From a virus: a stretch of DNA of 64,000 bases. The translations under genes were made by a program, and so were the position numbers. Shown here in pieces: positions 11,880-63,315 of the stretch. A model generated the notes under the pieces. That model saw nothing but the letters and a program-made list of their open reading frames with translations, was not told the DNA's origin and made no database searches. Within the stretch, counting starts at the first letter, position 1. Each line of letters opens with the position of its first letter. Location: positions 32,001-96,000 of the IMG/VR virus record IMGVR_UViG_3300037089_000505. One strand, written 5' to 3'.

Positions 11880-12342
11880 AATCGAACGCAAGTTCCTTGT
11901 AAAAGGAGACGGTTACAAAAGCCTTAGATTTAAAATCTATCGTCAAGGATATCTCTCCACAGAAACGAAGCATACAGTAAGGGTGCGAACGGTAGGGCGA
12001 AAAGCCTTTATAACCATCAAGGGTAAAAGAGTTGGAATTAGTCGGACTGAGTTTGAATACGAAATTCCTTATAGTGATGCCAAAGAAATGCTTGAGTTTC
12101 TATGCGAAAGGCCTATCATAGAAAAGACGCGATATATTGTTAAATACGGCGAACTGACTTGGGAAGTAGATGAATTCATGGGTGAGAACCAAGGACTTGT
12201 AATAGCAGAAGTTGAGCTCGAGAGCGAAGATCAAAAAATTCATTTGCCGCCATGGGTAGGAGAAGATGTATCAAAAGATCCCCGCTATGCTAATTCTAAT
12301 TTAGTGAGGAATCCTTACAAATCATGGCCGACAAAGAATTAA
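11869..12342 (+). CDS. CYTH-domain triphosphatase/adenylate cyclase-like protein
   Basis: EIERKFLV, QGYL, VRVR, EFEYEIP, EKTRY, WEVDEF, AEVEL. Confidence 0.92.
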   Translation: MNVEIERKFLVKGDGYKSLRFKIYRQGYLSTETKHTVRVRTVGRKAFITIKGKRVGISRTEFEYEIPYSDAKEMLEFLCERPIIEKTRYIVKYGELTWEVDEFMGENQGLVIAEVELESEDQKIHLPPWVGEDVSKDPRYANSNLVRNPYKSWPTKN

Positions 12343-13063
12343 CACTTGCATTACTTAAAGCAAGAGAGTGGATAAAAATAAGAGGTGTGCTAGTTCAAGT
12401 CTCACAAGAATATTCGCCTGACGGCATTGGAAGATTTCATGTAGATTTCATGACCACTAATATGGATTCACAACAACGATTGGGTCAGCTCATCTATCAA
12501 AATGTAATGCCATATAGTCCAACTAAAGAAACTGAACTCTGGATTATTAAAGTTGATTAGTAAGAAGGTTACTATTTTGATGCTTAGAGGCTTACACTGT
12601 GGAAACTGTCGGCACTTAGCACACATAGTAAGTGCAGTCGGTACCGGCTACTTATATCATTGTGAAAATAAAAAGTCTCGGCGACCAACGATGTCGTTAG
12701 AGGAAGCACGTTATCCGTGTAGCCATTGGAAAAAAGTTAAGTAATTACTTTTACGATTGTTGTAAGTGTAAGAATAGCGCACAGCCGTTAGATGATATAG
12801 GCTTATACTGTCGAGCGAAAGAAAAAGACGTATTGCCGTCTCAAAAAAAGTGCGAACATTATGCGGAGTATACATTGACTAAGAAAGAGTTCACAATAGG
12901 AGTTCTCAAAGATGAGTTGTGGTGTTGTTTATGTGTGCGTGGAACGGTAATTGCAAAGCCGGGCTCTCCTATTTATTGCACTATACATAATAGAGATGTG
13001 GCAATAAAATCACCACCATGCAAAAATTATTGCGATTGGAGAGGACCTATAAAAAATGAATGA
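12324..13063 (+). CDS. cluster of small ORFs (12324-12560, 12553-12744, 12875-13063), the latter two Cys-rich
   Basis: Overlapping ORFs; CxxC...C...C modules; shared N-terminal K-x-x-T-(I/L)-x-x-L-(K/R) motif. Confidence 0.6.
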
Positions 13064-13553
13064 TCTAAAATTCAATTGGCTTGGTGAAGGAATGCACTAT
13101 GGACAAGACACTCACTTCTTTTGCCTAACAGCTTTTAACATTGACCTTATATATTCAATCAATAAAAGAACTAAAATGTCAGACGGCGAAGAGTCGTTTG
13201 TAATAAATCGAGTAACACAAAAAAGTATAGGTAATGTCAACAAGAATAGAAGTATAGATGAAACTATAAACAATGTCTTTTTAATAAAAACAGATGATGC
13301 CTTTCATAGGAAATTCAAACATAGTTACTATTTGCTTAAGTTTGTTACAGATACTAATGTTATTACGATAGGTAAATATTCAGATAACACTGCTAGTAGT
13401 TCTTTTTATCTAATCTGCGGTACTGACTATATAAATCTATTAGCTGATACTAAAAAAGTTGAGTCAGCCGACGATATTAGAGAAACAGCGTTCAAACCAC
13501 TTATGTGTGTGTTTGATCGCAACGAAATGACTAAGGAACTGCTTCGAGATTAA
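13056..13553 (+). CDS. hypothetical protein
   Basis: 165-aa ORF with SD-like GGAG/GAGG upstream. Confidence 0.6.
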   Translation: MNDLKFNWLGEGMHYGQDTHFFCLTAFNIDLIYSINKRTKMSDGEESFVINRVTQKSIGNVNKNRSIDETINNVFLIKTDDAFHRKFKHSYYLLKFVTDTNVITIGKYSDNTASSSFYLICGTDYINLLADTKKVESADDIRETAFKPLMCVFDRNEMTKELLRD

Positions 13554-13570
13554 GGAGATAAAGTTAGCCC

Positions 13571-14839
13571 ATGAAAGAAAGTTTAAACCTTGGAACACTT
13601 GAACATTTGATCTTAAACTACTCTACAAAAGATCAAAGCTTCTGGTTGAAAGTATTCGAAAATCTAAAACCCGCCTTCTTTGAGAAGGACGATAATAAGA
13701 AAGTCTTTACATTCTTTAAGAACTATTTCGGTAAGTACAAACAAATACCTGCTCGACAAATAGTTGCAAACGAATTAAGAGACGTAGATGCATCTACATT
13801 ATCGGTTATTTATGAAGCACCTACCGAAGACGCAAAACAATACATATACGAAAAGACTCTTACCTTCATAAAAGAGAGTATGATGAAAGAGGCTTTTATG
13901 AAGTCTATCGACATTCTAGAAAAGAATGGTAAGGATAAGTTTGACGAAATAGAATCTGAAGTAAGAAAAGTCGTTAGATTCAATATGGATGTCTCGCTTG
14001 GTATTAGACTATCAGACGTAGATACCAGATACGAAAAGATCAAATCACTTGAGACAGAAAGAATACCCACTGGTTTCCCTCAATTAGACGCTTTACTCCA
14101 TGGAGGATGGGGACGTAAAGAGTTATTTGCCTGTGCAGCGCCTCCAGGAATTGGTAAATCAATCTTCTTAGCTAATTGGGCAGTTCAAGCTATGAAGCAC
14201 GGACATAACGTTCTAGTCTACACACTAGAAATAGCAGAAGAGCGATTGTCAATGAGGCATGATGCTATTCTAACTAAAATACCAGTAGACGAATTGATAT
14301 TAGATATTGATGCAATCAAAGCAAAGTATAAGATGTTTGCCAAAGTGTCTAAAGCTGACATGCAGATAAAAGAGTTCCCAACTAAGGGTGTCAGCATAAA
14401 CCAATTGAAGTCGCATTATGAACAACTAAATCTATATGAGGGTTTTGAACCAGAAATAATCTTTGTAGACTATGCTGGTCTATTAAGACCGTCCTTCAGA
14501 GTAGGAGATAACTACGAAGATTTAAGAACCATCTTTGAAGAACTAAGAGGTTGGGCGGTAGAGTTAGACATTCCTATCGTTACAGCTGCTCAAACAAACC
14601 GAAAGAGCATAGACGAAAAAGGTGGAACAAAAGAAATCATTACAATGGCTCAAGTAGCTGACTCACTTGGTATTACCCAAACCCTAGACGTCTTTATGAC
14701 TATAACACAATCAAGAACTGAAAAAGAAGAAGGCCGAATCAATTTGTATATAGATAAAAGCCGTAACGGAGAATCTTCAAAATCCATCGAGCTAAGCATA
14801 GATTATAAGAACTTCATAGTAGAGGAGTTAGGAATATGA
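13571..14839 (+). CDS. replicative DnaB-like helicase (T4 gp41-like)
   Basis: IPTGF..LD..L.GG, APPGIGKS, YTLE, FVDYA, TAAQTNR, KSRNG. Confidence 0.95.
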   Translation: MKESLNLGTLEHLILNYSTKDQSFWLKVFENLKPAFFEKDDNKKVFTFFKNYFGKYKQIPARQIVANELRDVDASTLSVIYEAPTEDAKQYIYEKTLTFIKESMMKEAFMKSIDILEKNGKDKFDEIESEVRKVVRFNMDVSLGIRLSDVDTRYEKIKSLETERIPTGFPQLDALLHGGWGRKELFACAAPPGIGKSIFLANWAVQAMKHGHNVLVYTLEIAEERLSMRHDAILTKIPVDELILDIDAIKAKYKMFAKVSKADMQIKEFPTKGVSINQLKSHYEQLNLYEGFEPEIIFVDYAGLLRPSFRVGDNYEDLRTIFEELRGWAVELDIPIVTAAQTNRKSIDEKGGTKEIITMAQVADSLGITQTLDVFMTITQSRTEKEEGRINLYIDKSRNGESSKSIELSIDYKNFIVEELGI

Positions 14840-15052
14840 TAGAATTCGAAGAAAGCAAGAGAGTGGATAATAAGCCTATTTCTCAGTTAGTTAATCGCGA
14901 AACTGGAAAACGCTACATTGATATGGACGACCTATTACATTTCTTGGATAATGTTGCTTTTCGAAGTGAAGGCTATACTGGCCCACAAGTCGTAGAATTC
15001 CTGAAGCAGCGCCTGACAGTTATGATGTCAGGTCAAGACGACAAATGTTGTT

Positions 15053-15588
15053 ATGAGTTATTTAGTCTCTAAGGAAGAAGCACTACTACTCTTAAAAGGC
15101 TGGCAAAAATCTCATCCACCAAAAGACGGTAGAGACTTTGTAGGACTTTGGTCTGACAGAGAACCTCATCTTTTATTTTGGGATAAAAATAATGAGACTT
15201 GGTCTGGCGTAACTAAAGACGAATATGAAGAGCCAGAGTATTGGCGTGAGTTGAATGCCACTGAGAATAAAAGATTAGAAAAATGGACGAAGTTCCTTGA
15301 TAAATGGTCATGACAAAAGAAGAGGTCATAAAACTTTTAAAATTAAAAGGCAGCGAACCACCACACGATAGATCCTTTCTAGGTCGTTGGTTTATTCGAG
15401 ACGCGACTTTTCGTATTGAAAAGGGCACTTATCATTGTACTGAGAGGTGGGTGACCCACATAATTCATTGGGAGAATGGTGAGTGGTGGTCAGATGATTC
15501 AGCTTATCCGTGGAGAAAACCAGAGGGTGGATGGAGAGAAATAGAAGAAGGAGATGAATACGATGAAGAATGGTATGAAGGCAGATGA
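15053..15588 (+). CDS. two paralogous Trp-rich small proteins (15053-15313, 15310-15588), DUF551-like
   Basis: PP(K/H)D...F.G.W ... W ... P..WRE(L/I) in both. Confidence 0.6.
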
Positions 15589-15899
15589 TATAAAACCAGC
15601 TTGGGAACTTGACCCAAAAGACATAACTAAAAGATTGCTAAAGGATATACCGAGCGGACTTCGCTATACTCAGAAAGATAAAGAGCGAGCTATAGATGAG
15701 GCTTTCAGTGCTTGTGCCTTCGGTAGTATGCAGAATGGAGTACCTGGTGAAATCATTAACCATCTATCCAAAGAAACTCGCGACATACTACAACATTGCA
15801 CATCGCAAGATTGGATGCACAGAATACCGACTTGGCTTGACAACGATAAAAGCCTTGATGCACAAATTCGCAGAATGGCGCCGAATTGGAATAAAAAGA

Positions 15900-16367
15900 A
15901 TGGACGACGAAGGTAGTGTTTGGTTTCACGGGACCGATACCAAAAAGAAGTATCTCTCAATACTAAAAAGTGGGTTCAAACCTTATACTTATTTTACACC
16001 ATACCTTGATACAGCTATCGGATATGGTGGGAAATATGTATTTGCTATTTACTTTGAAAAGAACCCTACTAAGTACTGGGAATGGAGAAATACCGAAATA
16101 ATCCCGCCTGACAGAATCTTACACGTCAAAGAATACTCCTACACCGTTAAATATATCAACGAAGCTGCTCTTAAAGAACAACACCATTCTGATCTTTTAG
16201 AAAGAAATCCTGGTAAAATTATTTGCCCAAAATGCGACGGTCACGGCGAACATAGACCTAAGAAATATAGACTTCAACACATATACAAAATCGGGGGTGG
16301 ATCTTTCAGGACCAGAAAAGACAAATGTAATATTTGTGAAAACTGTAACGGATATGGAGTAGTCTAA
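15900..16367 (+). CDS. ADP-ribosyltransferase-like protein with C-terminal CxxCxGxG zinc finger
   Basis: WFHGT...SILKSGF...YFT.....A..YG...WEW...IPP.RI; CPKCDGHG and CENCNGYG; likely start ATG 15900. Confidence 0.6.
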   Translation: MDDEGSVWFHGTDTKKKYLSILKSGFKPYTYFTPYLDTAIGYGGKYVFAIYFEKNPTKYWEWRNTEIIPPDRILHVKEYSYTVKYINEAALKEQHHSDLLERNPGKIICPKCDGHGEHRPKKYRLQHIYKIGGGSFRTRKDKCNICENCNGYGVV

Positions 16368-16686
16368 AGTCAAGATAATTTCATGGTTAAGCTTGGCCGC
16401 TGGTACAAAGACGAATACAATGAATATACAATGCCTCTCGTTGTTGATATACTGAAAGATAAACTAACTGCTATTATTTCTTTACCAGATACTAGAAACT
16501 CAGACTCTGAAAAACTTAATTACATTTTAACAGATAGATACACCGACACCTTCGGCCTAATGATAGGTGAGATGCCAAAACTACAATCTAAAAGTTTCTC
16601 TAGAAAATTGCCCAGAAAGACAATGCGAAAGGCACTCAAAGCTATATTTACGGGGAAAGCGTAAAGATAAATATAAGGAGACTCTC

Positions 16687-17470
16687 ATGACACTTTACGG
16701 TTTACTGTTACAAAATTTGACTGACTTAAATGAAATGCATGCAGTTCCAGGCCCAGGTGGATTAAGGCACGGACGTGGGGCAGCTGGACACTTAAGAGGT
16801 TTTGAAAAATCTAAACCACCTGCAGGTATGTCTGGTAAAGATTGGCACATTGGAGATAAGTGGATGAGCTATGAAGAAGCTCAATTATATCTCAAAGACA
16901 AACTGAAACGATCTGTTCCAGAAAAAGAACTTGACCACATGGACGTAGATGAAATGGTCGCTAAAACAAAGGAACTGGCTTTAAAATTGTGAAATTGTCA
17001 GAAGCTCTTTTTCTAGAAATGAACGTAGAGTCTCCTATTAACCCACTAGGCTCATATCCTGGTCCCGGATATGCAAGTCCTGGCTTTAAATTCAATACGC
17101 CTCAAACTCCAGTTACTTCGCAAGGTGCAGACAAAGAAGCTTATAAATATTACGGGAAAAGATACCCTATTCCTAAGAAAAAGAAGAAAGAAAAAAGAAA
17201 GAGGGGCGTAGATGAGATTGATAAACTATCAACAGATATTGATGCGCCAGGTAATGGCTTCGGATCAATGTATTAGGAGTTAATATGAAGCTAGCAGAAG
17301 CTATAGGAACAATCCCTACACCAAACAAGATGAATGAACCATACTTGAACTTCGGCACTCATATAGAAAAACCCCGTAAGAGACCTAAGCCGTTGCGCCG
17401 ACGTCTCAACCCACTCAAGGCAGCGACTCGCCTACCCAACATAAAACCTGCTCCACTCGAAGGCTATTAA
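16687..17470 (+). CDS. three small basic/Pro-Gly-rich proteins (16687-16992, 16989-17276, 17285-17470), candidate internal head proteins
   Basis: N-termini MTLYGLLLQNLTDLNE, MKLSEALFLE, MKLAEAIG; AGGAG SD at 16687 and 17285. Confidence 0.5.
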
Positions 17471-17491
17471 CTATCGATTCTATAATATAGT
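17471..17491 (+). promoter_or_regulatory. TCGA-N8-TAnnnT promoter (leaderless geometry)
   Basis: ctaTCGA ttctataa TATAGT, 6 nt to ATG 17498. Confidence 0.6.
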
Positions 17492-17497
17492 CCACTA

Positions 17498-17761
17498 ATG
17501 GACGCGAACAAACTAAAAAAACTTAAGGAAATCAAATACCAGATTCGGAAATGCTGTGGAACATGTAAGCACGCTAACTTCCCCGCGAATGATTGGTCTA
17601 CCTGCCAATTTCACACATATCAACATCAAAAACATACAGTAGAAATGAGAAACTTATCTGTCAACAGCTATGGATATTGTCCCAGCTTTGAGTGGAGTGA
17701 GTTTTATCTAAAGGCTGAACTCGGTCTTTGGTTGAGCTTTACTGAAGGAAGTGAAACATGA
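17498..17761 (+). CDS. Cys/His-rich hypothetical protein
   Basis: CCGTCKH...C..H.Y.H.KH...GYC. Confidence 0.65.
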   Translation: MDANKLKKLKEIKYQIRKCCGTCKHANFPANDWSTCQFHTYQHQKHTVEMRNLSVNSYGYCPSFEWSEFYLKAELGLWLSFTEGSET

Positions 17762-18117
17762 CAAAAACAAAGATCGTTCTTGCAACTGGAGCTGGATTAT
17801 TTGTAATTCTTTTCTTCTTTTTGGTTATATGTTTTCCAAGGCCATTTCCAACTGAAACTCAGCAATTTTCAGAAATCCAAAAATCAATCGACGAGAACGA
17901 AAAGAAACTCCAAGAAGCCGAGCAAGGCGTGTGGAACATTCAAAGGGATTTGTGCAATCTTACTCTTCAGATTTGGGTGACGGATATGATTCGTCATCAT
18001 CAAACTTTTTCTCTCACACACATTGAGACTATAGAAGATTTTAGTCCAATGACCGATTGGATGGCTTTATTGGACAGTTGGGTTCTTTGGCTTCAAAAGA
18101 AAATCATCATCAGAGAA

Positions 18118-18138
18118 GTTTCGAATCCAGTTTAGTAT
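18118..18138 (+). promoter_or_regulatory. TCGA-N8-TAnnnT promoter (leaderless geometry)
   Basis: gttTCGA atccagtt TAGTAT, 6 nt to GTG 18145. Confidence 0.65.
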
Positions 18139-18144
18139 TAATTT

Positions 18145-18669
18145 GTGGAAAAGGTCAATCTCCCAGAAATGCAGAAAGGTGCTTGGAAGGTAGAACGTTT
18201 CACTACCGACCGAACTGATTGGAGTTCACTCTTTCATGGAAGGGCAGTTCCAGTTGGCGAAACCTATACGCGCCTCATGCGAGACAATGTTCTAGTAATG
18301 TCGGACACTCCTGCTGAAATGCACGACCATCGAGATCCTGTCGATTTTGCAAGAGGCTCCTGTCTTTTGAGTGGACTTGGCCTTGGAATGGTTTTGAAAA
18401 ACATCCTGCTCAAGCCATATGTTACAGATGTAACAGTGATAGAAGTCTCTCAAGATCTGATCGACCTTATTTCGCCTTTCTACATTGATCCACGAGTCAC
18501 AATCATTTGTGCAGATGCTTTAGCCTACAGGCCGCCCAGAGGCAAACACTACAATATGGTCTGGCATGATATCTGGGACAACATCTGTGAAGACAATCTT
18601 GAGAGCATGAAAAAGCTCAGAATGAAGTACGCAAGGCGAAGTGATTGGCAAGGTTGCTGGGCTCAATAG
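18145..18669 (+). CDS. SAM-dependent methyltransferase (spermidine-synthase-like fold)
   Basis: VMSDTPAE, GLGLG motif I, VTVIE, ADA, WHDIW. Confidence 0.8.
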   Translation: MEKVNLPEMQKGAWKVERFTTDRTDWSSLFHGRAVPVGETYTRLMRDNVLVMSDTPAEMHDHRDPVDFARGSCLLSGLGLGMVLKNILLKPYVTDVTVIEVSQDLIDLISPFYIDPRVTIICADALAYRPPRGKHYNMVWHDIWDNICEDNLESMKKLRMKYARRSDWQGCWAQ

Positions 18670-19803: not shown

Positions 19804-20625
19804 ATGAAGATTACAATAGTTGGAAGCGGTAACGCTTTTTCGTTCAAAAATTACAACACCTGTTTTTTACTCGAAGAAGATAACAAGAAACTACTCATCG
19901 ACTGTGGTGGAGAAGTTCCACAAGCTTTACACGATAAACTCAATCTGAGCTATAAAGATATAGACGCAATCTATGTAAGCCACTCGCATGCTGATCATAT
20001 TGGCGGCTTAGAAAAGTTTGGCTTTGCTCGATATGATTGGGTAAACAAACCACGTCTATGGAATCAATCCGAAAAGCCTTATGCGCCCGTTCTGATTGGC
20101 AATGCAACGTTACTTCTAAACATTTGGCAAAGATCACTTCGTGGTGGAATGGACACGCTTGAGTTTCAAACCACACTGGAAACCTTTTTCCATACTTTGC
20201 CTATAGACAACAATGAGTTTTATTGGCAGGGATGGGACTTTAAACTTATTCGCAACCTTCACGGAGAAGGCAACAACAAATATTCATATGGCCTTTATGG
20301 CGTTAGGCCAAATTATCCCTCGGTTTACTTTACCACTGATAGTAGATTCGATGATTCATCTGAAAAGATTGAACTATATCGCAAAGCCGATAGAATTTTC
20401 CAGGATTGCGAATGCACTCCATATCTTTCTGGTGCTCATGCAAACTATCAACAGCTGGTGACTTTACCGACTGATATTAAGAAGAAAATGTATCTCACTC
20501 ACTATCAAGATTCTGTGTATGACGGTGGTGATGAAAACAAATATGAAGTTAGGGCAGAACTTGACGGCTTCGTTGGTTTTATCGAGCCGGGTGAAATTTG
20601 GTATTTATCAGAGGTAAATAAATGA
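19804..20625 (+). CDS. metallo-beta-lactamase-fold hydrolase (RNase Z-like)
   Basis: GSGNAF, LIDCG, SHSHADHIGG, FTTD, H..Y, LTHY. Confidence 0.9.
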   Translation: MKITIVGSGNAFSFKNYNTCFLLEEDNKKLLIDCGGEVPQALHDKLNLSYKDIDAIYVSHSHADHIGGLEKFGFARYDWVNKPRLWNQSEKPYAPVLIGNATLLLNIWQRSLRGGMDTLEFQTTLETFFHTLPIDNNEFYWQGWDFKLIRNLHGEGNNKYSYGLYGVRPNYPSVYFTTDSRFDDSSEKIELYRKADRIFQDCECTPYLSGAHANYQQLVTLPTDIKKKMYLTHYQDSVYDGGDENKYEVRAELDGFVGFIEPGEIWYLSEVNK

Positions 20626-21188
20626 ACTACTTCTCTTCCGACTGGCATCTCGGCCATACCAATATCATCAAATACTGCCATCGGCCTTTTGTAAGCTCAG
20701 AAGAGATGGATGCTATTATACTCAAAAACTTTTTTGACACTGTCAAACCTGGAGATAAATTTTTCTATCTTGGAGATCTTTCTTTTCATATTGACACAAT
20801 CAAGAGAGTATTAAATAGTCTAGCCGGTACTAATATCAAAAGCGTATTCTTAGTAGGGAACCACGATAATTACAACGTAGCCATTAGACAAGTGGCAAAA
20901 TCTGGGGGCATTGAAATAGTGGATGGCTTTCTTGACATTAACATAGAAGGTCAAGCTATAACCTTATGCCATTATGCAATGCAGTCTTTTTACAAATCTC
21001 ATTTTGGCGCTTGGGGTCTGTACGGCCATCATCATACTAATGTCAGCCAAGAAGTGACTGGCAAAAAGATGAATGTGGGAGTAGATCAACACAACTTCTT
21101 TCCAGTTTCATTTGATCAGGTAAAGGCCTACATGAAAAACCGACCCGACAATTGGGACACAATTCATGATGCCGAAAAAAGATTTTAA
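20622..21188 (+). CDS. calcineurin-like metallophosphoesterase
   Basis: SDWHLGH.NII.YC.RPF, LGD, GNHD, LCHY, YGHHH, NVGVD. Confidence 0.9.
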   Translation: MNYFSSDWHLGHTNIIKYCHRPFVSSEEMDAIILKNFFDTVKPGDKFFYLGDLSFHIDTIKRVLNSLAGTNIKSVFLVGNHDNYNVAIRQVAKSGGIEIVDGFLDINIEGQAITLCHYAMQSFYKSHFGAWGLYGHHHTNVSQEVTGKKMNVGVDQHNFFPVSFDQVKAYMKNRPDNWDTIHDAEKRF

Positions 21189-21386
21189 AGCCATAGAAGC
21201 ATATCATCGTTCTGAGCGTGATAGGTTAGATGCCGCTCTACCAAGAAAAGAATCTACAATTCGCATTCTTAAAGATCAAGATTGTCAACATTGTACTTAT
21301 CAGGGTTTAAAAAAACCTAAAGATATAGCTGATGCTTTATTTGGTTACTGTCCATACTTTGGATTTGAGCCAAATACTTGCAACTG

Positions 21387-21661
21387 GTGGAAAAGCAAAT
21401 AACTAAAAAAACAAGAACGCTCAAACTACTTAAGGGCGAAGATTGCCAGCATTGTATGCGATTTGAGCGAAGACATAAGCCAGTTGTGGGCGGTATTGAG
21501 TCATACTGCCATATATGCGAAAAGATTCTATTCTAAAAGAGAATACTTGTGACGAATGGTGGCCGAGCAATGAAACGCTGAAAGAAAAGTTAGTGCGAGC
21601 CGTACAGATTCCAAAGGAATATTTGTTTCGAGAAGAGAGTATAAATAAACGAAAGAGGTGA
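21387..21661 (+). pseudogene. Cys-rich small gene disrupted by a 5-bp duplication; paralog of 21166-21402
   Basis: ATTCT ATTCT at 21525-21534; removing one copy restores ...DCQHC...YC...NTCDEWW, matching the neighbour's DCQHC...YC...NTCNWW. Confidence 0.6.
21625..21645 (+). promoter_or_regulatory. TCGA-N8 promoter
   Basis: gttTCGA gaagagag TATAAA(T), then GAGGTG SD and ATG 21664; would also cover nadE. Confidence 0.55.
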
Positions 21662-21663
21662 GC

Positions 21664-22113
21664 ATGAACTACTTTCAGAGACTCTGGACAAAAACGCCAC
21701 TCAGTAACAAGATCACGCTGGCTGTTTTGGCCCTTGTCATAGATCTCATTCCGATTTTCTGTCTTTGTTGGAGTCTATCACTTCCGCCGGGATCGAAGTA
21801 CCAAACTTTTGACATTGTAGTCAGTGTAATTGCCGTTCCCCTCTTTCTCCTTGGAATCCCATTTGCCTTGTCTGCCCAGGATCTAGCTCAGATTGAAAAG
21901 CGAGAGAAGGAAGTGGCCAAAGATCAGCAAGACTTTCTCAACGATGAAGACGGCTACTTGGAAGGCATGGCCGAAAGAGTCATCACAGAGATTGAATTTG
22001 ATATGGAGATTAAGGAGCTCACTGATTTACAAAAACGGAAATTCGTCAACAAGATTCTTTACAAAATAGTTTCACACTTCAGGGGTTTAGGAAAGGAGAA
22101 GGAAAAGATATGA
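21664..22113 (+). CDS. membrane protein (2 TM)
   Basis: two hydrophobic segments followed by a charged tail. Confidence 0.65.
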   Translation: MNYFQRLWTKTPLSNKITLAVLALVIDLIPIFCLCWSLSLPPGSKYQTFDIVVSVIAVPLFLLGIPFALSAQDLAQIEKREKEVAKDQQDFLNDEDGYLEGMAERVITEIEFDMEIKELTDLQKRKFVNKILYKIVSHFRGLGKEKEKI

Positions 22114-22940
22114 TCAAGGATTTCACGGGCCTCATCAACGCGACGACCATCAGCATCAGGAACTTTACTGACTGTGCGGTCCTCGGACTCTCAGGCGGAG
22201 CTGACTCGACGCTAGTGGCCATTCTTTCCGCCATGGCTTTGGGCCAGGAAAACGTCTACGGAATCGGACTACCCTACAGCGATCTTGACAAGCAGACTTT
22301 CAATTCACGGTCGGCACGGATCGCCCACAGGCTGAACATTCACTACCTGGAAATCCCCATCAAGAAGCAGGTCGACGCTATCATCGAGTCGCTCAAGTGG
22401 GATGATGACCATCCCATGGAGCTCGATGCCATTCAGTTGGGCAACATCAAAGCTCGAGTCCGAATGGCCACGCTCTACGGCCTGAACGGAGCCTTCTCGG
22501 ATGAAGGAACTCGGTACCGTGTCATAGGCACTGGGAACTTCAGCGAGGACTTCATCGGCTACGATACCAAGGGTGGCGATGCTCTTGCCGACATCTTCCC
22601 TATCGGTTGTCTTTTCAAGAGTGAGGTCTATCAGCTTCTCGATCATTTCATTTCTCAAGGATTCATCGAAGAAGACCTTGTCGACCGGGTTCCGAGCGCC
22701 GGTCTCTGGGAAGGCCAGACAGACGAGGGTGAGCTCGGTCATACCTACGCTGACATGGAACCCAAGATCGTCCAGCTCGTCGATGCTTACAAGGATGAGA
22801 TTGGAGAAGTCCAGACTGATGCTCTGACAGAAGATGTCCGCCTGAGACACCTTGCCAACAAGCACAAGCACATGGCTCCTCCGGTTCTCAACCTTCGCAA
22901 GTTCTGCGAATGGAACGATCCGACTGGCTATTTCGCATAA
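22110..22940 (+). CDS. nadE: NH3-dependent NAD+ synthetase
   Basis: LGLSGGADS, GNIKARVRM..LY, GTGN.SE..IGY.TK.GD, K.EVY.L, PSAGLWEGQTDE.ELG..Y. Confidence 0.95.
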   Translation: MIKDFTGLINATTISIRNFTDCAVLGLSGGADSTLVAILSAMALGQENVYGIGLPYSDLDKQTFNSRSARIAHRLNIHYLEIPIKKQVDAIIESLKWDDDHPMELDAIQLGNIKARVRMATLYGLNGAFSDEGTRYRVIGTGNFSEDFIGYDTKGGDALADIFPIGCLFKSEVYQLLDHFISQGFIEEDLVDRVPSAGLWEGQTDEGELGHTYADMEPKIVQLVDAYKDEIGEVQTDALTEDVRLRHLANKHKHMAPPVLNLRKFCEWNDPTGYFA

Positions 22941-25056: not shown

Positions 25057-26289
25057 ATGGAAACACGCGGAGATAAGTCACTCATCATGGTCACCGCTGA
25101 CAACAACAACAAATTTTACAAGATGCATGATAATACCGATGGAACCTTCACGGTGAAATACGGTCGGGTCGGAGTCACTGAGACGACTATGAACTACCCC
25201 ATAAAGAAATGGGATTCCATTTACCGAGACAAGACCGGCAAAGGTTATCGGGATGTTACGGAGCTTCGGGCCGAGAAGACGGTCAACAACAGCAATGGCA
25301 ACACCCCGAGTTTCGCCGACATCAAAATCGCCCAGATCAAATCTCTGGTCGCCACTCTCCAGTCCTATGCGAAGAAATCAGTCACCGAGAACTATACGGT
25401 CACTTCTGAGGCAGTCACTCAAGCCCAGGTCGACGAAGCACAGTCTGTTTTGGACCGGATCACCACTCTGAAGGTCACCGATACCAAGATCCTCAATGAC
25501 ACCCTCCTGGAACTCTACAAGGTCATTCCCCGAAGAATGGCCAACGTCAAGCATCACCTCTTCGGTCTGGAAGAGGGACTTGATAGCAAGCCGGACATTT
25601 TCAAAAGGACAATTGAGACCGAGCAAGCCACTCTGGACGTTATGAGAGGCCAGGTTTCTACTAACACCAAGACCAAGGACGTTTCTAACAAAGCCAACCA
25701 GACACTGCTCGAGGCCATGGGGCTGGAAATCGTTCCCATCGAAGATTCGGATCGGCAGATCATTCTCAAACTTCTCGGCCCCAACAGCCGGCAATTCCGT
25801 TCGGCCTTCAAGGTGATCAACGTCAAGACTCAAGGCCTCTTTGATAAGAAACTGGTCGAAGTCACCAACAAATCCACCAACCTTTTTTGGCACGGCTCTC
25901 GCAACGAAAACTGGTGGTCCATTCTGGACTCCGGCCTCATGATCAGGCCTTCCAACGCCATCTACACTGGGTCCATGTTCGGAGATGGAATCTACTTCGC
26001 CGATAAGGCTCAGAAGTCTATCGGCTACACTTCTCTTCGGGGAAGCTACTGGGCCGGTGGCGGAAGCAACAAGGCTTACCTGGCAGTCTTCAATGTCCAT
26101 ACCGGAAACTGGCTCAAAGCTCAGAGGCACGAGTCCTGGATGTACGAACTGACTGAGAAGAAGCTGAAAGCCCGGGGCGCTTACGATTCTTTCTTCGCTC
26201 TCGACGGAGCTGATCTCCGGAACAATGAATACATCGTCTACAACAAGGCACAGTGCACCGTCCAGTACCTGGTCGAGATCGGAGACTAA
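25057..26289 (+). CDS. poly(ADP-ribose) polymerase: WGR + helical regulatory + catalytic domain
   Basis: NNNKFY...YGRVG...K..KGY (WGR); LY..IPR; FWHGSR.ENW.SIL..GL, G.MFG.GIYFA....KS.GY, NNEYIVY (H-Y-E triad). Confidence 0.92.
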   Translation: METRGDKSLIMVTADNNNKFYKMHDNTDGTFTVKYGRVGVTETTMNYPIKKWDSIYRDKTGKGYRDVTELRAEKTVNNSNGNTPSFADIKIAQIKSLVATLQSYAKKSVTENYTVTSEAVTQAQVDEAQSVLDRITTLKVTDTKILNDTLLELYKVIPRRMANVKHHLFGLEEGLDSKPDIFKRTIETEQATLDVMRGQVSTNTKTKDVSNKANQTLLEAMGLEIVPIEDSDRQIILKLLGPNSRQFRSAFKVINVKTQGLFDKKLVEVTNKSTNLFWHGSRNENWWSILDSGLMIRPSNAIYTGSMFGDGIYFADKAQKSIGYTSLRGSYWAGGGSNKAYLAVFNVHTGNWLKAQRHESWMYELTEKKLKARGAYDSFFALDGADLRNNEYIVYNKAQCTVQYLVEIGD

Positions 26290-27395: not shown

Positions 27396-27871
27396 ATGAA
27401 GGTGACGAAGATTCTTGTCGTTCTGTTGGCCGTTCTGTTTGCGGCCCTTGTGGGATGCACTTGCTCATAGTTGGTGGTTTTTACTTCTTTCAATAGCAAC
27501 GATCATAGGTGTTACTGGATGTCTTGTTGAAGTATACGACGAGGCCAAGCTAGTTGATGGTAGGGCTAAAGAAATTAGATGGGGTAGTCAACCATTTCCC
27601 AAAGATGAAGTCTTGGCCATGTTGAAGGATGCTCATACTTGTATCAACTGCTATTGGGAGCGTGGTACTGGGAAAGTCAATCGGCAATTGCATAAAGTGC
27701 CAAAAAGCATTTCCAGTTGAACATAAGTGTCTCTGGGAAGAAGTAGAGGCTCGAACGATTACAACCGAAGATTTTCGTAGACCTGATCTTGAAAAGCGAG
27801 TCACTGCTGAAATCAAAATTCTCAAATGTCATATCTGTGGGGATTTGAAAGAGTTTAGGATAAGCATATGA
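27396..27871 (+). pseudogene. frame-disrupted membrane gene plus Cys-rich gene
   Basis: ATG 27396 with AAGGAG SD stops early; coding sense continues in successive +1 frames (27415-27720, 27629-27871). Confidence 0.4.
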
Positions 27872-33276: not shown

Positions 33277-33504
33277 ATGGATAAGCGAGAAGTTATTGAT
33301 TTGCTGAAAGGTTGTGTAATGAAAGTAAGAGTTTTAAGTTCTACGAGTCCAGAGGACTTAGAAGACACAATCAACGATTTTCTTGCTAATTGTCACGAGA
33401 CGACAATAGTTGACATAAAATTCAGCACATTTCCAAGCGAGGGACAGCACCTCAGAGAAGCTGAATACTCTGCATTGATAATTTATAAGGAGATTCAAAA
33501 ATGA
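33277..33504 (+). CDS. Cse60/DUF2758-like small protein
   Basis: MKVRVL....EDLE..INDFL......VDIKF.....YSALIIY. Confidence 0.6.
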   Translation: MDKREVIDLLKGCVMKVRVLSSTSPEDLEDTINDFLANCHETTIVDIKFSTFPSEGQHLREAEYSALIIYKEIQK

Positions 33505-43817: not shown

Positions 43818-44018
43818 ATGACGCAAACTTTTCGCATTGAAAAGGGCACTTATCACTGCACAGAATGCGGCAAAGAAATCAAGATCACCAAAGTGCCTAC
43901 AGTCTGGAATCCTACAACTGAGCTCATAGTCAGAGAAGATAGGAACAATGAAATCTGGCATCCGAACCAAGATGCGAAAGGCCAATACTATGAGTGTGGC
44001 CCGATGAGGAGAATATAA
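43818..44018 (+). CDS. small zinc-ribbon-like protein
   Basis: AAGGAG SD; CTECG ... H ... C. Confidence 0.6.
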   Translation: MTQTFRIEKGTYHCTECGKEIKITKVPTVWNPTTELIVREDRNNEIWHPNQDAKGQYYECGPMRRI

Positions 44019-47713: not shown

Positions 47714-48463
47714 AACACACAATTCTTCGAGTGAGCGGATATTGGGGAGATAGTTATTGGCACATACCTATCCTCTCTGAAGAAGAAAAAATAACTCTAG
47801 ACAAAATAATAGAAGCGATACCAGAGTGTTATCGCTTTCAAACACATAGAGTATATAAGGATGTAAGAAACTTTTGTAAACAACACGGCCAAAAAATCAC
47901 GATCGAAAAAGTTAATGAGCTATTGGCTGAAAATGATGAGGTTGAGAAAAGCGACAATCCTTTAGTAAATTTGCTACGCGAATGGGAATATGAAATGGCC
48001 AGCTTAGAACAACACGACTATGACGCTATGTGTAAAAAGACTGACCAAGTTCTTGCGGAGTATAAGCAATGTCCAAAATGAAAGAACCCGAATTCCCCAA
48101 ATGCAAAGTCACCATAGGTGTAGAATTCTTGGGTGACTATTTTGAAACTTGGGATGAAGAAATAGATTGGAATGACTTTTGTGATCAAGTCTATGACCTT
48201 TCGGCTGATGTAGAAGTTGAAGTAAGAGAGGCAGCTCAAAAGAGAATAGCCTTGAAAGATGCCCTAAAGAAAAAAGATGGCGACTAAAGAAGAAGTTTTA
48301 AAGCTACTCAAAGCAAAATCCAAAGTGATTATTGCCTGTCCAGAATGCGGTTCAGATAAGATCAATCAATATCGTATGCCGACTGGACCAATCTGGTGCG
48401 AAGCGTGTGGACTAAGAGTTGAACAAAAAGAAAAGAACAATCCATTTATTACAAGGATATAAA

Positions 48464-48928
48464 ATGGTGTTAAAGTTTAGAATGTGGAATCCAACCACTA
48501 AAACAATGATTGATCTTAAAGCAATCACCCCCTTAGCCCTCGATTCTAACTTGAAAGTAGATGGGATCTTTATTCCTTTCAACGGAATGCCCATCATGCA
48601 ATATACGGGCATGACTGACAAGAACGGTAGAGAAATATATGACGGTGACATTCTAAGGAAAAGCGATCCTGAATATTGGGATCCAAAAGCTTGGGAAGGT
48701 TCAGATCTCTTCAGCCCACCAGACGAACATGATAAAAAACTATTTGGTGGTGGAACTGGCTATGTAGAATCTTGTGCTTTTGGTTGGACAGTAATCGATA
48801 TCAATTGTGGCGAGTGGGCCTTTAACGGTCCTGAGGGACCAGGGTGGAATGGTTGGGATGTAGAGGTCATTGGCAACAGATACGAAAATCCTGAATTGAT
48901 GGTGAAAAAAGATGGCCAGAAGATATAA
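48464..48928 (+). CDS. YopX-family protein
   Basis: KFR.W, MQYTG.TDKNG.EIYDGDI, EVIGN.YENPEL. Confidence 0.9.
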   Translation: MVLKFRMWNPTTKTMIDLKAITPLALDSNLKVDGIFIPFNGMPIMQYTGMTDKNGREIYDGDILRKSDPEYWDPKAWEGSDLFSPPDEHDKKLFGGGTGYVESCAFGWTVIDINCGEWAFNGPEGPGWNGWDVEVIGNRYENPELMVKKDGQKI

Positions 48929-54213: not shown

Positions 54214-54234
54214 GTTTCGAAGGTATGGTAATAT
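54214..54234 (+). promoter_or_regulatory. TCGA-N8-TAnnnT promoter (leaderless geometry)
   Basis: gttTCGA aggtatgg TAATAT, 5 nt to ATG 54240. Confidence 0.7.
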
Positions 54235-54239
54235 AAACT

Positions 54240-57999: not shown

Positions 58000-58419
58000 A
58001 TGGAGCAGCATCCAAGAAATCCATACGTAGCAGTAGACGCCATCATCCGGGTGAAAGGTGGCGCTAAAATCATTTGTATCAAGCGCAAGAACCCTCCATA
58101 TGGTTTGGCTCTTCCTGGGGGTTTTGTCAATTACGGCGAAAGCGCCGAAGATGCAATCAAACGAGAAGTGATGGAAGAAGTCGGCGTCCGGTTAGATCTC
58201 CTGGCCCAGTTCCATACTTACTCGGCACCTGACAGGGATCCTCGTCATCACACACTCAGCGTAGTATTCATCGCTTGGTCAGAGGATGAACCGAAAGCGG
58301 GAGACGACGCCGCTGAAGTCCTTCTTGTCAATACGCTTGATATTCCAAAGCTTGAGTTCGCTTTTGATCACGCAAAAATCCTAGAGGACTGGAGAGGACT
58401 CGGACAGTATCGACACTGA
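58000..58419 (+). CDS. Nudix hydrolase (ADP-ribose pyrophosphatase-like)
   Basis: ALPGGFV..GES..DA..REV.EE.G Nudix box, P.RDPR, AGDDA, AFDH. Confidence 0.92.
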   Translation: MEQHPRNPYVAVDAIIRVKGGAKIICIKRKNPPYGLALPGGFVNYGESAEDAIKREVMEEVGVRLDLLAQFHTYSAPDRDPRHHTLSVVFIAWSEDEPKAGDDAAEVLLVNTLDIPKLEFAFDHAKILEDWRGLGQYRH

Positions 58420-58427
58420 TTTATTAT
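58407..58427 (+). promoter_or_regulatory. TCGA-N8-TAnnnT promoter
   Basis: gtaTCGA cactgatt TATTAT, then GGAGG SD and ATG 58447. Confidence 0.65.
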
Positions 58428-58966
58428 AAAGGTAACGGAGGAAGCAATGGTCAAAGATTTTTTCTGGAACCTGTTTTGGAAGCCGGTAAAGTCAAATCTG
58501 ATACTGGCAGCTCTTTTCCTTGTAGAGATTTTCTGGTTTCTTGTCCTGGAATGGGAGCGATGGATCCACATCGCATTTCTCATCGGAACTGGCATTCTTT
58601 CAATCTACCTCAACGATGGCCGTTACTTCGTGGCGGCTGCCGGTGGGGCCACAGTCTACAGTCTCCTTTGGTTCAAGCTGGCCGTCTCGAAACGGTGGTA
58701 AACTAGAGGCGGCAGAGATCTGGGCCGGTGGAAACACCGGCCTTCTTTTTACGAAAGGAAGCAGAGATGGCTACCTTCTTACGTTTCATGGTTTTTATTG
58801 TCATGGGCGCTGGGGGTCTTTTCCTGGGCATCTTTTTAGTATATCTTGCCTGGACGTTTCTACCCTTGATACTTTCTATTTTCGCAACAGTCATAGCATT
58901 TGTGCTTTGGTGCTGGGGAGTAGTTGAAGTCGGGGCATGGGTCATAATTTCGGCATAGGAGAGACA

Positions 58967-59737
58967 ATGACTGATTCACTTGGCGATAGGATGAAAGGCA
59001 ATTACGAAAACCGTTCTCGGTTTTACCTGACTCGAAGAACGCCTGTCATCATTCGTGTAGATGGCCGAGCCTTTCACACTCTGACTCGCAACTGCGAAAA
59101 GCCCTTTGATGAGAGTTTGAGCAAATGCATGATCGAGACTACGATCGGACTCTGTGAAGAGATTCAAGGCGCAAAATGTGCCTACGTCCAAAGCGACGAG
59201 ATCTCAATTCTGATTACCGATTATGATCGTCTTAGCTCTGGCGCCTGGTTCGACTACAACCTCCAGAAGATGGCTTCGGTCTCAGCTTCCATCGCCACTC
59301 TAGCTTTCGGTCTTTCTATAAGAAAAATCGCTGGCGATTGGAACGATTGGAAAAGTCAAGCCAAAGCTACATTCGACTCTCGCGTTTTCAATATTCCGAG
59401 AGAAGAGGTGACCAACTATTTCGTTTGGAGACAGCAAGACTGGACTCGCAACAGCCTTGAAATGCTGGCTCGAGCCCACTATTCACACAAACAGCTGGAC
59501 AAAAAGAATGGTGCAGCAATGCACGAGATGCTCCACGAGAGGGGCGTCAATTGGGCGGATCTCCCTGACAAGTGGAAGAATGGAAGTCTCATTGTCAAAG
59601 AGTCTATTCTCATAGACCTGAATCAGGACATGGTAGCTTCAAACATGCGGTCTGAGTGGAAGCCGAAAGATCCATGTCCCATTTTCAAGAACGACCGAGA
59701 CGCTATCGAGAAGCTTCTCATACCTGAGGAGGTATAA
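58967..59737 (+). CDS. thg1: tRNA(His) guanylyltransferase (Thg1-like)
   Basis: LGDRMK..YE, IRVDGRAFH..T, KPFD, YVQSDEIS, FDSRVF, YF.WRQ.D..RNS. Confidence 0.93.
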   Translation: MTDSLGDRMKGNYENRSRFYLTRRTPVIIRVDGRAFHTLTRNCEKPFDESLSKCMIETTIGLCEEIQGAKCAYVQSDEISILITDYDRLSSGAWFDYNLQKMASVSASIATLAFGLSIRKIAGDWNDWKSQAKATFDSRVFNIPREEVTNYFVWRQQDWTRNSLEMLARAHYSHKQLDKKNGAAMHEMLHERGVNWADLPDKWKNGSLIVKESILIDLNQDMVASNMRSEWKPKDPCPIFKNDRDAIEKLLIPEEV

Positions 59738-61185
59738 CATGTCAAAGAAAGAACTTGAACCGGTCGAGCTCATCGACATCACGATCAAGGCTTTCGCTCA
59801 CGGAGCCCTCATTTTCGAGAAGAGCTACCGCAACATCCAATACACTCTCGACTATGATGATCAGCTCACTGAAATCCAGATCACTGATAGTCTCGGCAAG
59901 ACAAAGACCCAGTCATTTTTCAACGTCGCCGTCATCGTCACAGAAGACTGAAATGACTTTTGATTGGGTTAAAGGCGAGCCGCCGAAAGAATCAAATAAG
60001 AAATGGCTGATTGAAATTCGGCCAGAATTTTTCGGTGGTTCACAGAAGGATTCTGAATACATAGTCATTTCATGGAATCCCATAACACTTTACTATTTGG
60101 ACTGGCTGGGACATGTAGTTGAGCCTTTCTATATCGCAAGACATGTAGAGTTGGAGGTCTAAAATGAAATGGCTTATGTATCGCGATCGCCATAGCTCTG
60201 GCGTCTCGCACTGGATTTATCGGCCACTCTACGTAGATAAGATCACAGACGATCTCAAAAAAGACTGTGAAGAAAGCATGCAGGAAAAGTCCAATGAATG
60301 GAATTGGTCTGATCACTTCCGAGGCATAGAGTGGAAAATCGTTGACACTCGGCATGTCTCAATGAAAGCTATTGCAGCTACTTTGATCGGCATGAAACGA
60401 TCGGTAAACTATCACAAGATTGCTATCAAAGACCTCAACGGTCAAATCCCTCAGATCTTATCTCTACTGGATAACGGCAAGGGTCGCAAAACTGACCCTG
60501 ATGATATCGAGCAGGCACGTCGAGACAAGCAGCGAGCCAAGAGCATGAGGGACTTTCAAAAGCGACAGGCGAAAGGAAAATAACATGGCAATATTCGGAT
60601 GGATCCTTATAGCCCTTATCATTTTCTTTTTAGCCCTTTGGTTACCGAAGAACTTAGCCACTTATTTGGCAAAATCATGGTTTGAAAATAACTACCCAGA
60701 TTGGGCTAATCTTCTCCCGTCCTATAATCGCATGTTCTGGAACCCTCGCCGATGGACAGTAATGTCGTGGTTGAGTTGGCTTCAGAAAAAATTGACCAAA
60801 CAGCTTGCTGAAGTTGAAAAACAAATCAATCTTGCTGAAGTCATAAGCAAAGATCCCGAGTTTGCTTCACGACTTGTCAGCTCGGGTGTGTATGATCAAA
60901 TCCAGCAATGGATCAAGTCTCCTGCAGGTCAAGAATTCAAGAAAGTCGTAGACGAAATCAACAAAAAGGGAAAAAATGACTAAGATCATAAACTGGCTCT
61001 CTAAAAGAATTGATGAAATGAGCCAACAGGGCTATTGGTATTTTGTTCTCATAACTGCCTGGTGCATCGGCTGGATCATTGCCGATATTGCAACCGGTGG
61101 ATGGCCTTGGGCTATTGGACTCGCAATCATCTATATACCCTTCGTGATTGCTTTTTATAGAAAAATTCGCAAGAAGAAATCCTGA

Positions 61186-61206
61186 GCTTCGACAAAACGA
61201 TAGTAT
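61186..61206 (+). promoter_or_regulatory. TCGA-N8-TAnnnT promoter
   Basis: gctTCGA caaaacga TAGTAT; predicted +1 at the AAGGAG SD of pncB. Confidence 0.65.
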
Positions 61207-61224
61207 CAATCAAAGGAGAGCTAA

Positions 61225-62412
61225 ATGCCAATAACGCAGTCTCTGCTTAATACCGACCTTTATAAGCTGTCAATGGCTCAAGCGGCTCTTCATCAATTTC
61301 CTGGAGCAGAGGTTGAATATGCTTTTAAGTGTCGTAATAAAGCGCATTGGACTCCAGAAATTGTAGCTGCTATCAACAAAGAAATAGACGATCTTTGCTC
61401 CCTACGATTTACACAAGAGGAGCTTGAATTTCTTTCCCGTATTCGGTATCTCAAAAGAGACTTCCTTGATTTTTTGAGTCTCACACAATTGAATCGAAAG
61501 CATATCAAAGCATGGCTCGATGAAAATCAAGAACTTCAAATTCGTATTAAAGGTAATTGGTTTTTGACTATCTTATTTGAAGTCCCCGTCCTTGCTATCG
61601 TCAATGAAATCTACAATCAATTCACCTATCCCAACGTTGGCCCATTTGTAGGTGGACGTGGTCGCCTTGAAGAAAAAGCAAAGCTGCTCAAAGCCTATCT
61701 TTCAAATGGAAATCTACTCTACTTTAGTGACTTTGGAACACGGCGACGATACTCCTTCCATTGGCAAAAGGAAGTAGTCAAATTCTTGAAAGACGAATTT
61801 GGGCCGTCTGGAGTTTTCACTGGAACTTCAAACGTTCTTCTGGCAAAGACTTTCGGTCTCCGGCCTATTGGCACCATGGCCCACGAATGGATCCAGTGCG
61901 GTCAGGCAACTGGAGTCAGACTCATTGACTCGCAAAAAAGAATGCTTCAGGCCTGGGTAGACGAATACCGTGGCGACTTGGGCTATGCACTTTCAGATAC
62001 ACTCGGCACTGATGCTTTCGTCAAAGACTTCGACCAGTACTTTGCCAAGCTCTACGACGGAGTGAGACAAGACTCTGGTGATCCAATCGCTTGGGGGCAC
62101 AGGATCATTCAGCACTACAAAAAATTGGGCGTTGACCCCAAGACAAAGTCGCTCATCTTTTCAGATTCATTGGATTTTCCAAAGGCCATCAATATCAATG
62201 AGACTTTCAAGAATCAAGCCAAAGTTTCATTCGGTATCGGCACTTATCTGACCAATGATATTGAAGGAATTGAGCCACTCAACGTAGTAATCAAAGTGGT
62301 CAGGTGCAATGGCCAGCCGGTTGCAAAACTTTCTGACTCACCGGGCAAAGGCATGTGTGAGGATCAGGATCACGTCACATACCTCAAGAAGGTTTTTGGC
62401 ATCAAGGAGTAA
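61225..62412 (+). CDS. pncB: nicotinate phosphoribosyltransferase
   Basis: SLL.TDLYK..M, DFGTRRR.S, GTSNV, GTMAHEW (phospho-His), GVRQDSGDP, FSDSL, FGIGT.LTND, KLSD.PGK. Confidence 0.95.
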   Translation: MPITQSLLNTDLYKLSMAQAALHQFPGAEVEYAFKCRNKAHWTPEIVAAINKEIDDLCSLRFTQEELEFLSRIRYLKRDFLDFLSLTQLNRKHIKAWLDENQELQIRIKGNWFLTILFEVPVLAIVNEIYNQFTYPNVGPFVGGRGRLEEKAKLLKAYLSNGNLLYFSDFGTRRRYSFHWQKEVVKFLKDEFGPSGVFTGTSNVLLAKTFGLRPIGTMAHEWIQCGQATGVRLIDSQKRMLQAWVDEYRGDLGYALSDTLGTDAFVKDFDQYFAKLYDGVRQDSGDPIAWGHRIIQHYKKLGVDPKTKSLIFSDSLDFPKAININETFKNQAKVSFGIGTYLTNDIEGIEPLNVVIKVVRCNGQPVAKLSDSPGKGMCEDQDHVTYLKKVFGIKE

Positions 62413-62415
62413 CAC

Positions 62416-62826
62416 ATGGTTATGCTTATTGGTCTCGGTCTTTTGTTTGCCGGCGGCTTTGTTTGGCTCTCCGTGACAAATGATAGGGCAAGTTTCGGGG
62501 AGATCGGCGTCCTGGTCATAATGGCAATAGCTATTGCCGGCTTTATCACTATGGAAGTCTCGAAAGCAGTAAAGAGCCAGATCGTATCTGAGAAGATAAG
62601 TGTGACCATCCTCGATGACGACAAGGCTATCTTCCATGATAATGGCAAAGATATGGATATCAATACTACGAAGTTTGAAAGTATTGTGTTCACAGGCGAC
62701 AAGCTCTTTGTCCAAAAGACTTCAAGAATGTATCCCAAAAATATTTGGCTTCTCGACATGACTTCGTCCAACTACGTTTTGATAATTCCAGAGGTGGCAA
62801 CAAAATATGCTCCCAAAGGAGAATAG
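62416..62826 (+). CDS. 2-TM membrane protein (paralog family)
   Basis: S..F.GD....QK...W......Y.LIIP, as in 34137-34601. Confidence 0.6.
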   Translation: MVMLIGLGLLFAGGFVWLSVTNDRASFGEIGVLVIMAIAIAGFITMEVSKAVKSQIVSEKISVTILDDDKAIFHDNGKDMDINTTKFESIVFTGDKLFVQKTSRMYPKNIWLLDMTSSNYVLIIPEVATKYAPKGE

Positions 62827-63081
62827 AGATATGAGAGTCGGCGACATGGTCAGAAACAGCAAAGAACAAAGACTTTATTGCGGATGTGGAATGTATCCAT
62901 ACGCTATAGTCATGTCCCTCGATCCCTTCATCTTGGTATCAGAGGAGACTGATATGAGATGGGACCATGTTCTCAGAGAAGAGATGGACGAAATAGTTGG
63001 ACGGGCAAAGACTTCCACTATTCTGCGATGTCTTTGCCGCCTTTCTCTAAAAGAAAAGATAAAATTTTTAAATTGGTCTAA

Positions 63082-63315
63082 ATGAATAAGCGTAAGGTCA
63101 TTCATCTTTTGAAAGGAGTACGCTACGCGAAGATAAGAGCTGATTTATCGTTTTTGAATGGCGGTGAAATTCCTTACAAAAATCATTGGGGTAATTGGGT
63201 TTGGCGCGATCCTTCTGTACCAGAGGACAAAAATTGGGGCGGGCTAAAGCCTCCCAATAGTACTTGCATCCCAGTTCTCTATAATGGAATTTGGCACTGG
63301 AAACATTTTCTTTAA
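63082..63315 (+). CDS. small Trp-rich protein with N-terminal KRKVIHLLKG motif
   Basis: ORF overlapping the upstream stop. Confidence 0.55.
   Translation: MNKRKVIHLLKGVRYAKIRADLSFLNGGEIPYKNHWGNWVWRDPSVPEDKNWGGLKPPNSTCIPVLYNGIWHWKHFL

Follow-up and report, generated by a model that had tools for sequence, protein, structure and literature searches.

A ten-residue helix at the N-termini of cysteine-rich and other small proteins of a contractile-tailed phage

We analysed a 64,000-nucleotide window, bases 32001-96000 of a 143,947-bp viral contig (IMG/VR record IMGVR_UViG_3300037089_000505), in which small genes share a ten-residue peptide, here called the tag. The tag follows the pattern K-x-x-[TVAI]-[ILK]-x-[LMVI]-L-[KRQ]-[GDNA], a two-turn amphipathic helix, and approximately 28 small genes, about 9% of those on the contig, carry this helix at the N-terminus. 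The motif is real and strongly non-random. It also forms the opening structural element in a cysteine-rich family that is rare, lacks annotation and is expanded in this phage lineage. From comparisons at the sequence level, we consider the chances about even that the helix of this family was transferred to eight or more other protein bodies and retained there as a reusable interaction handle.

Jumbo phages are rich in small orphan genes that offer no handle for study, and a pull-down or localisation experiment based on the tag could give a partner or destination for about 28 unknown proteins at once. The contig, with a completeness of approximately 63% as estimated by CheckV, encodes a tail sheath gene, indicating a contractile-tailed phage, and many genes for replication and nucleotide metabolism; near-identical sequence is present on public contigs of up to ~310 kb. 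Neither megablast nor tblastn matched the window to cultured phages. Scans of IMG/VR with the tagged proteins 33277 and 63082, a DnaB-like helicase and the YopX protein returned zero relatives, and the sheath protein matched only a 5.7-kb fragment. Word-based homolog searches for 15310, 63082 and 33277 recovered the query itself or one to two close homologs only. No paper describing this N-terminal motif was found in the literature. The initial annotation, which had knowledge of no description of such a tag, had nonetheless overlooked a similar case, since the capsid targeting sequence (CTS) of T4 is a conserved N-terminal peptide on diverse internal proteins (PMC3012670).

Frequency and position of the motif

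The initial annotation had assigned the peptide to twelve open reading frames (ORFs), and all twelve peptides were present where it had placed them. Across all six reading frames of the complete contig, its regular expression had 17 matches, always on the plus strand. Fifteen of these matches lay 2-7 codons after an ATG, GTG or TTG, and none fell within a long protein. The mean number of matches was 0.09 in the residue-shuffled proteome (303 proteins called on the whole contig); calculated analytically, 0.09 are expected in the proteome and 0.6 over six frames. The motif therefore exceeded shuffled sequence, with 17 matches against 0.1-0.6 expected. Its proposed location at or near the N-terminus held for the same 15 of the 17 matches. 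Among the annotated copies, that at 27601 is internal, and that of 48419 depends on a TTG start. Five matches lay outside the window and are therefore independent of the fitting of the motif, which had used the window.

A position-specific scoring matrix (PSSM) was trained on ten tags of the cysteine-rich family only, to avoid circularity. It ranked the annotated tags of non-family proteins as the best matches outside the family, and added 15575 (absent from the original list), G101118, G136240, G128043, G135094, G135406, G135886 and, on the minus strand, G13707. Almost all of its matches lay 2-7 codons from a start codon; at 14 bits or more, 17 of 22 were N-terminal-like, compared to 15% of all scanned sequence windows. 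As a control, the same searches were applied to 450 kb of Bacillus phage G, an unrelated AT-rich jumbo phage. The regular expression matched twice, a 27-fold lower density, and neither it nor the matrix gave a match at a plausible gene start. Taken together, the enrichment, the N-terminal bias and the phage G control show that the motif is neither a generic amphipathic helix nor a general habit of jumbo phages.

The cysteine-rich family and the other carriers

Most carriers belong to the new cysteine-rich family defined here, whose proteins of 50-130 residues consist of the helix, a CxxC within 2-3 residues of it, a variable loop, a third cysteine, often [IL]-P, and then C-x-x-[WYF]. The invariant positions are the lysine, the second leucine and the four cysteines, which presumably bind zinc. 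A hidden Markov model (HMM) of the family identified 19 copies on the contig at E<1e-3, and the overall number is approximately 19-20. Members comprise 12553, 12875, 21166/21169, 21387, 27601 and at least 14 further contig ORFs. Most copies are held in tandem arrays (G2829/3010, 12553/12875, 21169/21387, G100925-101338 and G135088-136020). Among 1.84 billion clustered proteins the family had 29 representatives, and it had no relative in Pfam, PHROG or PDB. The ESM Atlas returned unnamed phage clusters and a lead to DUF6472 at 0.92, which HMMER did not support. A degenerate DNA pattern for the tag followed by CxNC detected nine loci on metagenome contigs, five of them with family members; no tagged non-family genes were present in the flanks of these loci.

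The helix is not always terminal within the family. A 26-residue extension precedes it in both 21169 and its ortholog P0018 (L017), and the relative P0019 contains two helix-CxxC units. In 27601 the tag begins at residue 63 behind a hydrophobic N-terminal part, with no start codon nearby, and the last two cysteines are missing.

A comparable expansion has been described in Bacillus phage G, where a small zinc ribbon is present in ~35 copies, for which a role as transcription factors or in DNA binding was suggested (Iyer et al. 2021, PMC7824862). In both cases, one jumbo phage encodes tens of small cysteine-rich paralogs. However, the spacing here is CxxC...C...C rather than that of a classical double-knuckle ribbon, and the two are not homologous by profile; the family profile had no match in the 497-kb phage G genome. 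Moreover, no N-terminal helix common to other bodies has been reported for the phage G ribbons.

Several members have individual features. In the sole minus-strand member (L001:13333-13713), the cysteine domain is followed by a long low-complexity tail rich in Thr, Ser and Gly, and a tail of this kind is conserved in three metagenomic relatives (P0013, P0017 and P0030). The member L004:19608-19877 (G135608-135880) has the C-terminal end ...ALIDLFKI. The gene G135088 (L006:2013-2249, G135013-135249) starts 1 nt past the 3′ end of a tRNA-Pro(tgg), leaving no room for a Shine-Dalgarno sequence, which suggests a leaderless or processing-dependent mRNA. The relative P0015 is likewise mis-called through its upstream tRNA.

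Outside the family, the tag was found on at least eight unrelated body types, represented by 12324, 15053/15310, 15575, 33277, 48277, YopX (given use of the TTG start), 63082 and, outside the window, G136234. Of these, 15575 and G136234 were added by the scoring matrix. The CxxC that follows the helix in the family is absent in 12324, 15053, 15310, 15575, 33277, 48419 and 63082. When the family profile was aligned by hhalign with 63082, 12324 and 15310, only residues 1-13/14 aligned; with 48277 the alignment spanned 22 columns, up to the first CxxC. Comparison of the bodies alone by blastp, with the tags removed, showed no similarity of non-family bodies to each other or to the family, except for 15053 and 15310, which are paralogs (E 1.5e-5). 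The initial annotation had described its twelve ORFs as otherwise unrelated, a statement that must be restricted: five of the twelve belong to the one cysteine-rich family and two are these paralogs, while the existence of about eight unrelated bodies stands.

Two of the bodies have domains whose boundaries can be compared with the tag. The 33277 protein matched Spore_Cse60 (PF10957) with 34.2 bits (cut-off 20.7), its residues 15-71 falling on profile positions 2-59, and three PHROG profiles also begin at Met15. Since the Cse60 domain begins at this residue, the 14-residue tag of 33277 is an add-on. The 48419 protein matched YopX (PF09643) with 66.1 bits (cut-off 22.4), residues 19-161 falling on profile positions 1-127. 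Here the profile starts just after Met16, and the canonical YopX start, ATG 48464, has a better Shine-Dalgarno sequence than TTG 48419. This is the weakest case of a tag, because it needs the TTG start and a 44-nt gene overlap. The Cse60-like and YopX labels of the initial annotation were thus correct, both matches lying above the gathering score. Its DUF551-like label for the 15053/15310 body was not recovered, with no Pfam match at E<=1 and no PHROG match at E<=0.01. In 48277, CPEC...CEAC takes the place of the family cysteine pattern (family HMM E 0.06).

Selection on the peptide and possible roles of the helix

Between genes, tags were identical at 7-9 of 9 amino acids with synonymous sites saturated (proportion of synonymous differences, pS, 0.6-1.0), which agrees with the divergence of the underlying DNA noted originally. 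For example, the Cse60 tag (33277) and the family tag of G135406 share 9 of 9 amino acids and have four synonymous differences. As cross-gene pairs had been picked by similarity, ortholog pairs were also compared. Ten public contigs that carry 15310 were unusable for selection tests because they barely differ from the window (nine at 100% identity and one at 98-100%), and the ortholog tests rest on two divergent relatives only, L050 and L051. In the comparison of 63082 with its 81%-identical L050 ortholog, the tag had a pS of 0.78 and a proportion of nonsynonymous differences (pN) of 0.07, the corresponding values outside the tag being 0.63 and 0.14. In the syntenic relative L051, the tags of 15053, 15310 and 15575 are retained behind different pre-tag residues (MK vs MSYLVS; LRKSHHT vs MT). 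Four ortholog pairs taken together gave a pS of 0.70 and a pN of 0.11 in the tag codons. These values show selection at the level of the peptide, non-family bodies included. Conservation through DNA-level repeats or a common upstream signal was ruled out, as both synonymous sites and upstream sequences differ. AlphaFold2 predicted residues 3-10 to be helical (two runs, pLDDT 61-63), with a mean predicted local distance difference test score (pLDDT) of 82 over the first ten residues.

Tagged genes are clustered, and non-family carriers often adjoin family members (12324/12553, 48419/48277 and G136234/G136020). Overlap with the upstream gene was found for 79% of tagged starts, compared to 39% of other genes. 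Tagged starts (e.g. those of 12324, 15310, 48277 and 63082) mostly lie within the 3′ end of the upstream gene, with overlaps of 4-35 nt, and have next to no Shine-Dalgarno pairing; in both respects they differ from the other small genes of the phage. Median Shine-Dalgarno pairing was -2.2 kcal/mol for tagged genes and -6.0 kcal/mol for other genes (p ~3e-7), a comparison that is biased because the gene caller chose untagged starts partly by their Shine-Dalgarno sequence. In the Cse60 and YopX genes, the L-K/Q-G codons of the tag themselves form the Shine-Dalgarno-like sequences AAAGG and AAGGA (-5.2 and -5.0 kcal/mol) before the canonical Met; these are located 7-8 nt upstream of it (window 33298-33321 for Cse60 and 48443-48466 for YopX). 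Both 33277 and YopX genes may thus give tagged and untagged isoforms.

An exchange between short stretches of genes was also detected. A 13-residue patch, TFRIEKGTYHCTE, is found in the middle of 15310 (15406-15444) and at the 5′ end of the small cysteine gene 43818 (43824-43862), with 34 of 38 nucleotides identical. The patch is absent from P0002, a 63%-identical ortholog of 15310, and so looks like the result of recent gene conversion, over a short patch, between two small, unrelated genes. It provides an example of short 5′-end patches that are exchangeable between phage genes.

In the reading to which we give about even chances, the helix of the cysteine-rich family would have been passed between genes by short-patch recombination at their 5′ ends, in arrays where genes are densely packed and translationally coupled. 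It would then have been retained because its conserved hydrophobic face and invariant lysine contact one common partner, which could be a phage protein, a host protein or other tagged proteins. The hydrophobic face (positions 4, 5, 7 and 8), the lysine and the Gly/Asp cap are kept on eight bodies, which argues for one external contact. A docking or addressing role, as suggested in the initial annotation, is plausible. What is borne out of that suggestion is that the helix is portable across bodies and selected as a peptide, as would be expected of such a module; what is not is its generality, since approximately two thirds of the carriers are full-length homologs, whose invariant helix is built into a helix-CxxC unit.

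Several points weigh against a reusable handle. No partner of the helix was found, nor a link to a reader, compartment, protease or virion. The junction between tag and body comprises 2-5 residues with no flexible linker, so the helix could merely pack against the body that bears it; within the cysteine-rich family it may belong to the structural core and be no handle. The tag is not always N-terminal, with 26 residues preceding it in 21169, an internal position in 27601 and two copies in P0019; since internal copies exist, a reader that requires a free N-terminus is unlikely. To these are added the bias in the Shine-Dalgarno comparison, the limitation of the ortholog tests to two divergent relatives, and models whose pLDDT falls to 55-65 beyond the helix.

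A stronger form of the proposal, which we hold only tentatively and regard as rather doubtful, is that one factor, of the phage or of the host, recognises the helix as a genuine address label, and that jumbo phages would route or regulate dozens of fast-evolving accessory proteins by short terminal helices. If true, such a label could direct accessory proteins into the virion or a compartment, or hand them to a chaperone or protease. Should one reader recognise the tag, it would serve as a portable tool, just as the T4 CTS has come to do. Encapsulin cargo-loading peptides address unrelated cargo to a shell protein; they are usually C-terminal, extended and Gly-rich, with flexible linkers. Like them, the tag is a short conserved terminal peptide on unrelated proteins, but it is an N-terminal helix without a flexible linker and no shell partner is known.

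Alternatively, the tag could be a by-product of start capture, whereby new small genes took approximately the first 12 codons of a resident family gene solely for its start and translational coupling, and the helix itself would serve no common function. This is consistent with tagged starts that lack a Shine-Dalgarno sequence and overlap the upstream gene, with the canonical Met that Cse60 and YopX retain right after the tag, preceded by Shine-Dalgarno-like sequence, and with the short-patch transfer seen directly between 15310 and 43818. However, a neutral scar should decay, yet no non-family carrier has lost a motif position; synonymous sites have reached saturation, and the ortholog tags differ far less at nonsynonymous than at synonymous sites (pN 0.11 vs pS 0.70). 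Every junction, moreover, falls in the same window of 2-5 residues after the helix. Overall, we consider start capture unlikely.

The T4 CTS, present on the internal proteins IPI-III and Alt, has been shown experimentally to be portable to foreign cargo (PMC3012670). The tag resembles it in that an N-terminal peptide of about ten residues is the sole common part of otherwise diverse small phage proteins, and the phage here is also contractile-tailed, with carriers that are small accessory proteins of diverse kinds. A virion or capsid addressing signal, acting in prohead loading and injection with the DNA, is nevertheless improbable. The sequence differs from the CTS, and in most carriers the tag is integral to a cysteine-rich domain, being internal in several family members. 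Across 25 sequences, neither a conserved Glu nor the L/I-x-E cleavage motif was found after the tag. Tagged genes lie among replication and nucleotide-metabolism genes. No prohead protease of the S77 or S78 type (PF03420, PF04586) was detected on the ~63% complete contig, but the S77 search was blank in control genomes too and is hence uninformative.

Very little probability attaches to a membrane-targeting amphipathic helix of the MinD/FtsA type that would bring small proteins to the inner membrane. A ten-residue amphipathic helix with K/R flanks and a Gly cap is similar in design to the tail of MinD, and in 27601 the tag is fused to a hydrophobic stretch. However, positions 2-3 of the tag are usually acidic, its net charge ranges from -1 to +4, and its hydrophobic face is small and often includes Thr. 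Finally, a chance origin, as a generic N-terminal helix arising from K/E/L-rich composition or A-rich codons after starts, is close to refuted: the regular expression was fitted to its matches and AAR/GAR codons are generally favoured after start codons, but the 17 matches far exceed expectation, five lie outside the window and none falls within a long protein, a matrix from one family finds the other carriers, and in phage G the density is 27-fold lower with none at gene starts.

Tagged and neighbouring genes of the window

Table 1. Location and properties of genes carrying the tag, in window coordinates
Feature	Coordinates	Strand	Remarks
Tagged protein, 78 residues, no Cys	12324..12560	+	Tag KELTLALLKA 12333-12362; start overlaps upstream CYTH gene by 19 nt
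Cysteine-rich family member, 63 residues, TTG start	12553..12744	+	Tag KKVTILMLRG, then CGNC...C...CSHW; HMM E 6e-15; missed by public gene calls
Cysteine-rich family member, 62 residues, TTG start	12875..13063	+	Tag KEFTIGVLKD; family HMM E 3e-9
Tagged protein, 86 residues	15053..15313	+	Tag KEEALLLLKG 15071-15100; L051 ortholog has KEETLLLLKG behind a different pre-tag N-terminus
Tagged protein, 92 residues	15310..15588	+	Tag KEEVIKLLKL 15316-15345; 13-residue patch copied from gene 43818
Protein of 113 residues with T-K tag variant	15575..15916	+	Tag KDITKRLLKD at residue 15 (15617-15646); PSSM 15.3 bits; ortholog KELTKRLLKD
Cysteine-rich family member with conserved 26-residue N-terminal extension	21169..21402	+	Tag KESTIRILKD 21247-21276; ortholog P0018 keeps both
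Short cysteine-rich family member, 49 residues, GTG start	21387..21536	+	Tag KTRTLKLLKG; family HMM E 1.5e-10
Truncated or fused cysteine-rich family copy, 101-residue ORF	27415..27720	+	Tag KDEVLAMLKD 27601-27630, CINC, stop; E 7e-4
Cse60-family protein with 14-residue tag extension MDKREVIDLLKGCV	33277..33504	+	Pfam/PHROG domain from internal Met15
Classical CPxC...CxxC zinc ribbon, 61 residues	48277..48462	+	Tag KEEVLKLLKA; borderline relative of the cysteine-rich family
YopX protein	48419..48928	+	Tag KKRTIHLLQG 48428-48457, translated only from TTG 48419; PSSM 23.7 bits
Trp-rich protein, 77 residues	63082..63315	+	Tag KRKVIHLLKG 63088-63117

The tagged genes share the window with several genes of predicted function. 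Public gene calls include an Apyc1-like metallo-beta-lactamase, matching the anti-Pycsar family, at 19804-20625, together with an NAD synthase (22110-22940), a PARP/WGR protein (25057-26289) and an NAPRTase (61225-62412). The phage seems equipped for NAD and cyclic-nucleotide conflicts.

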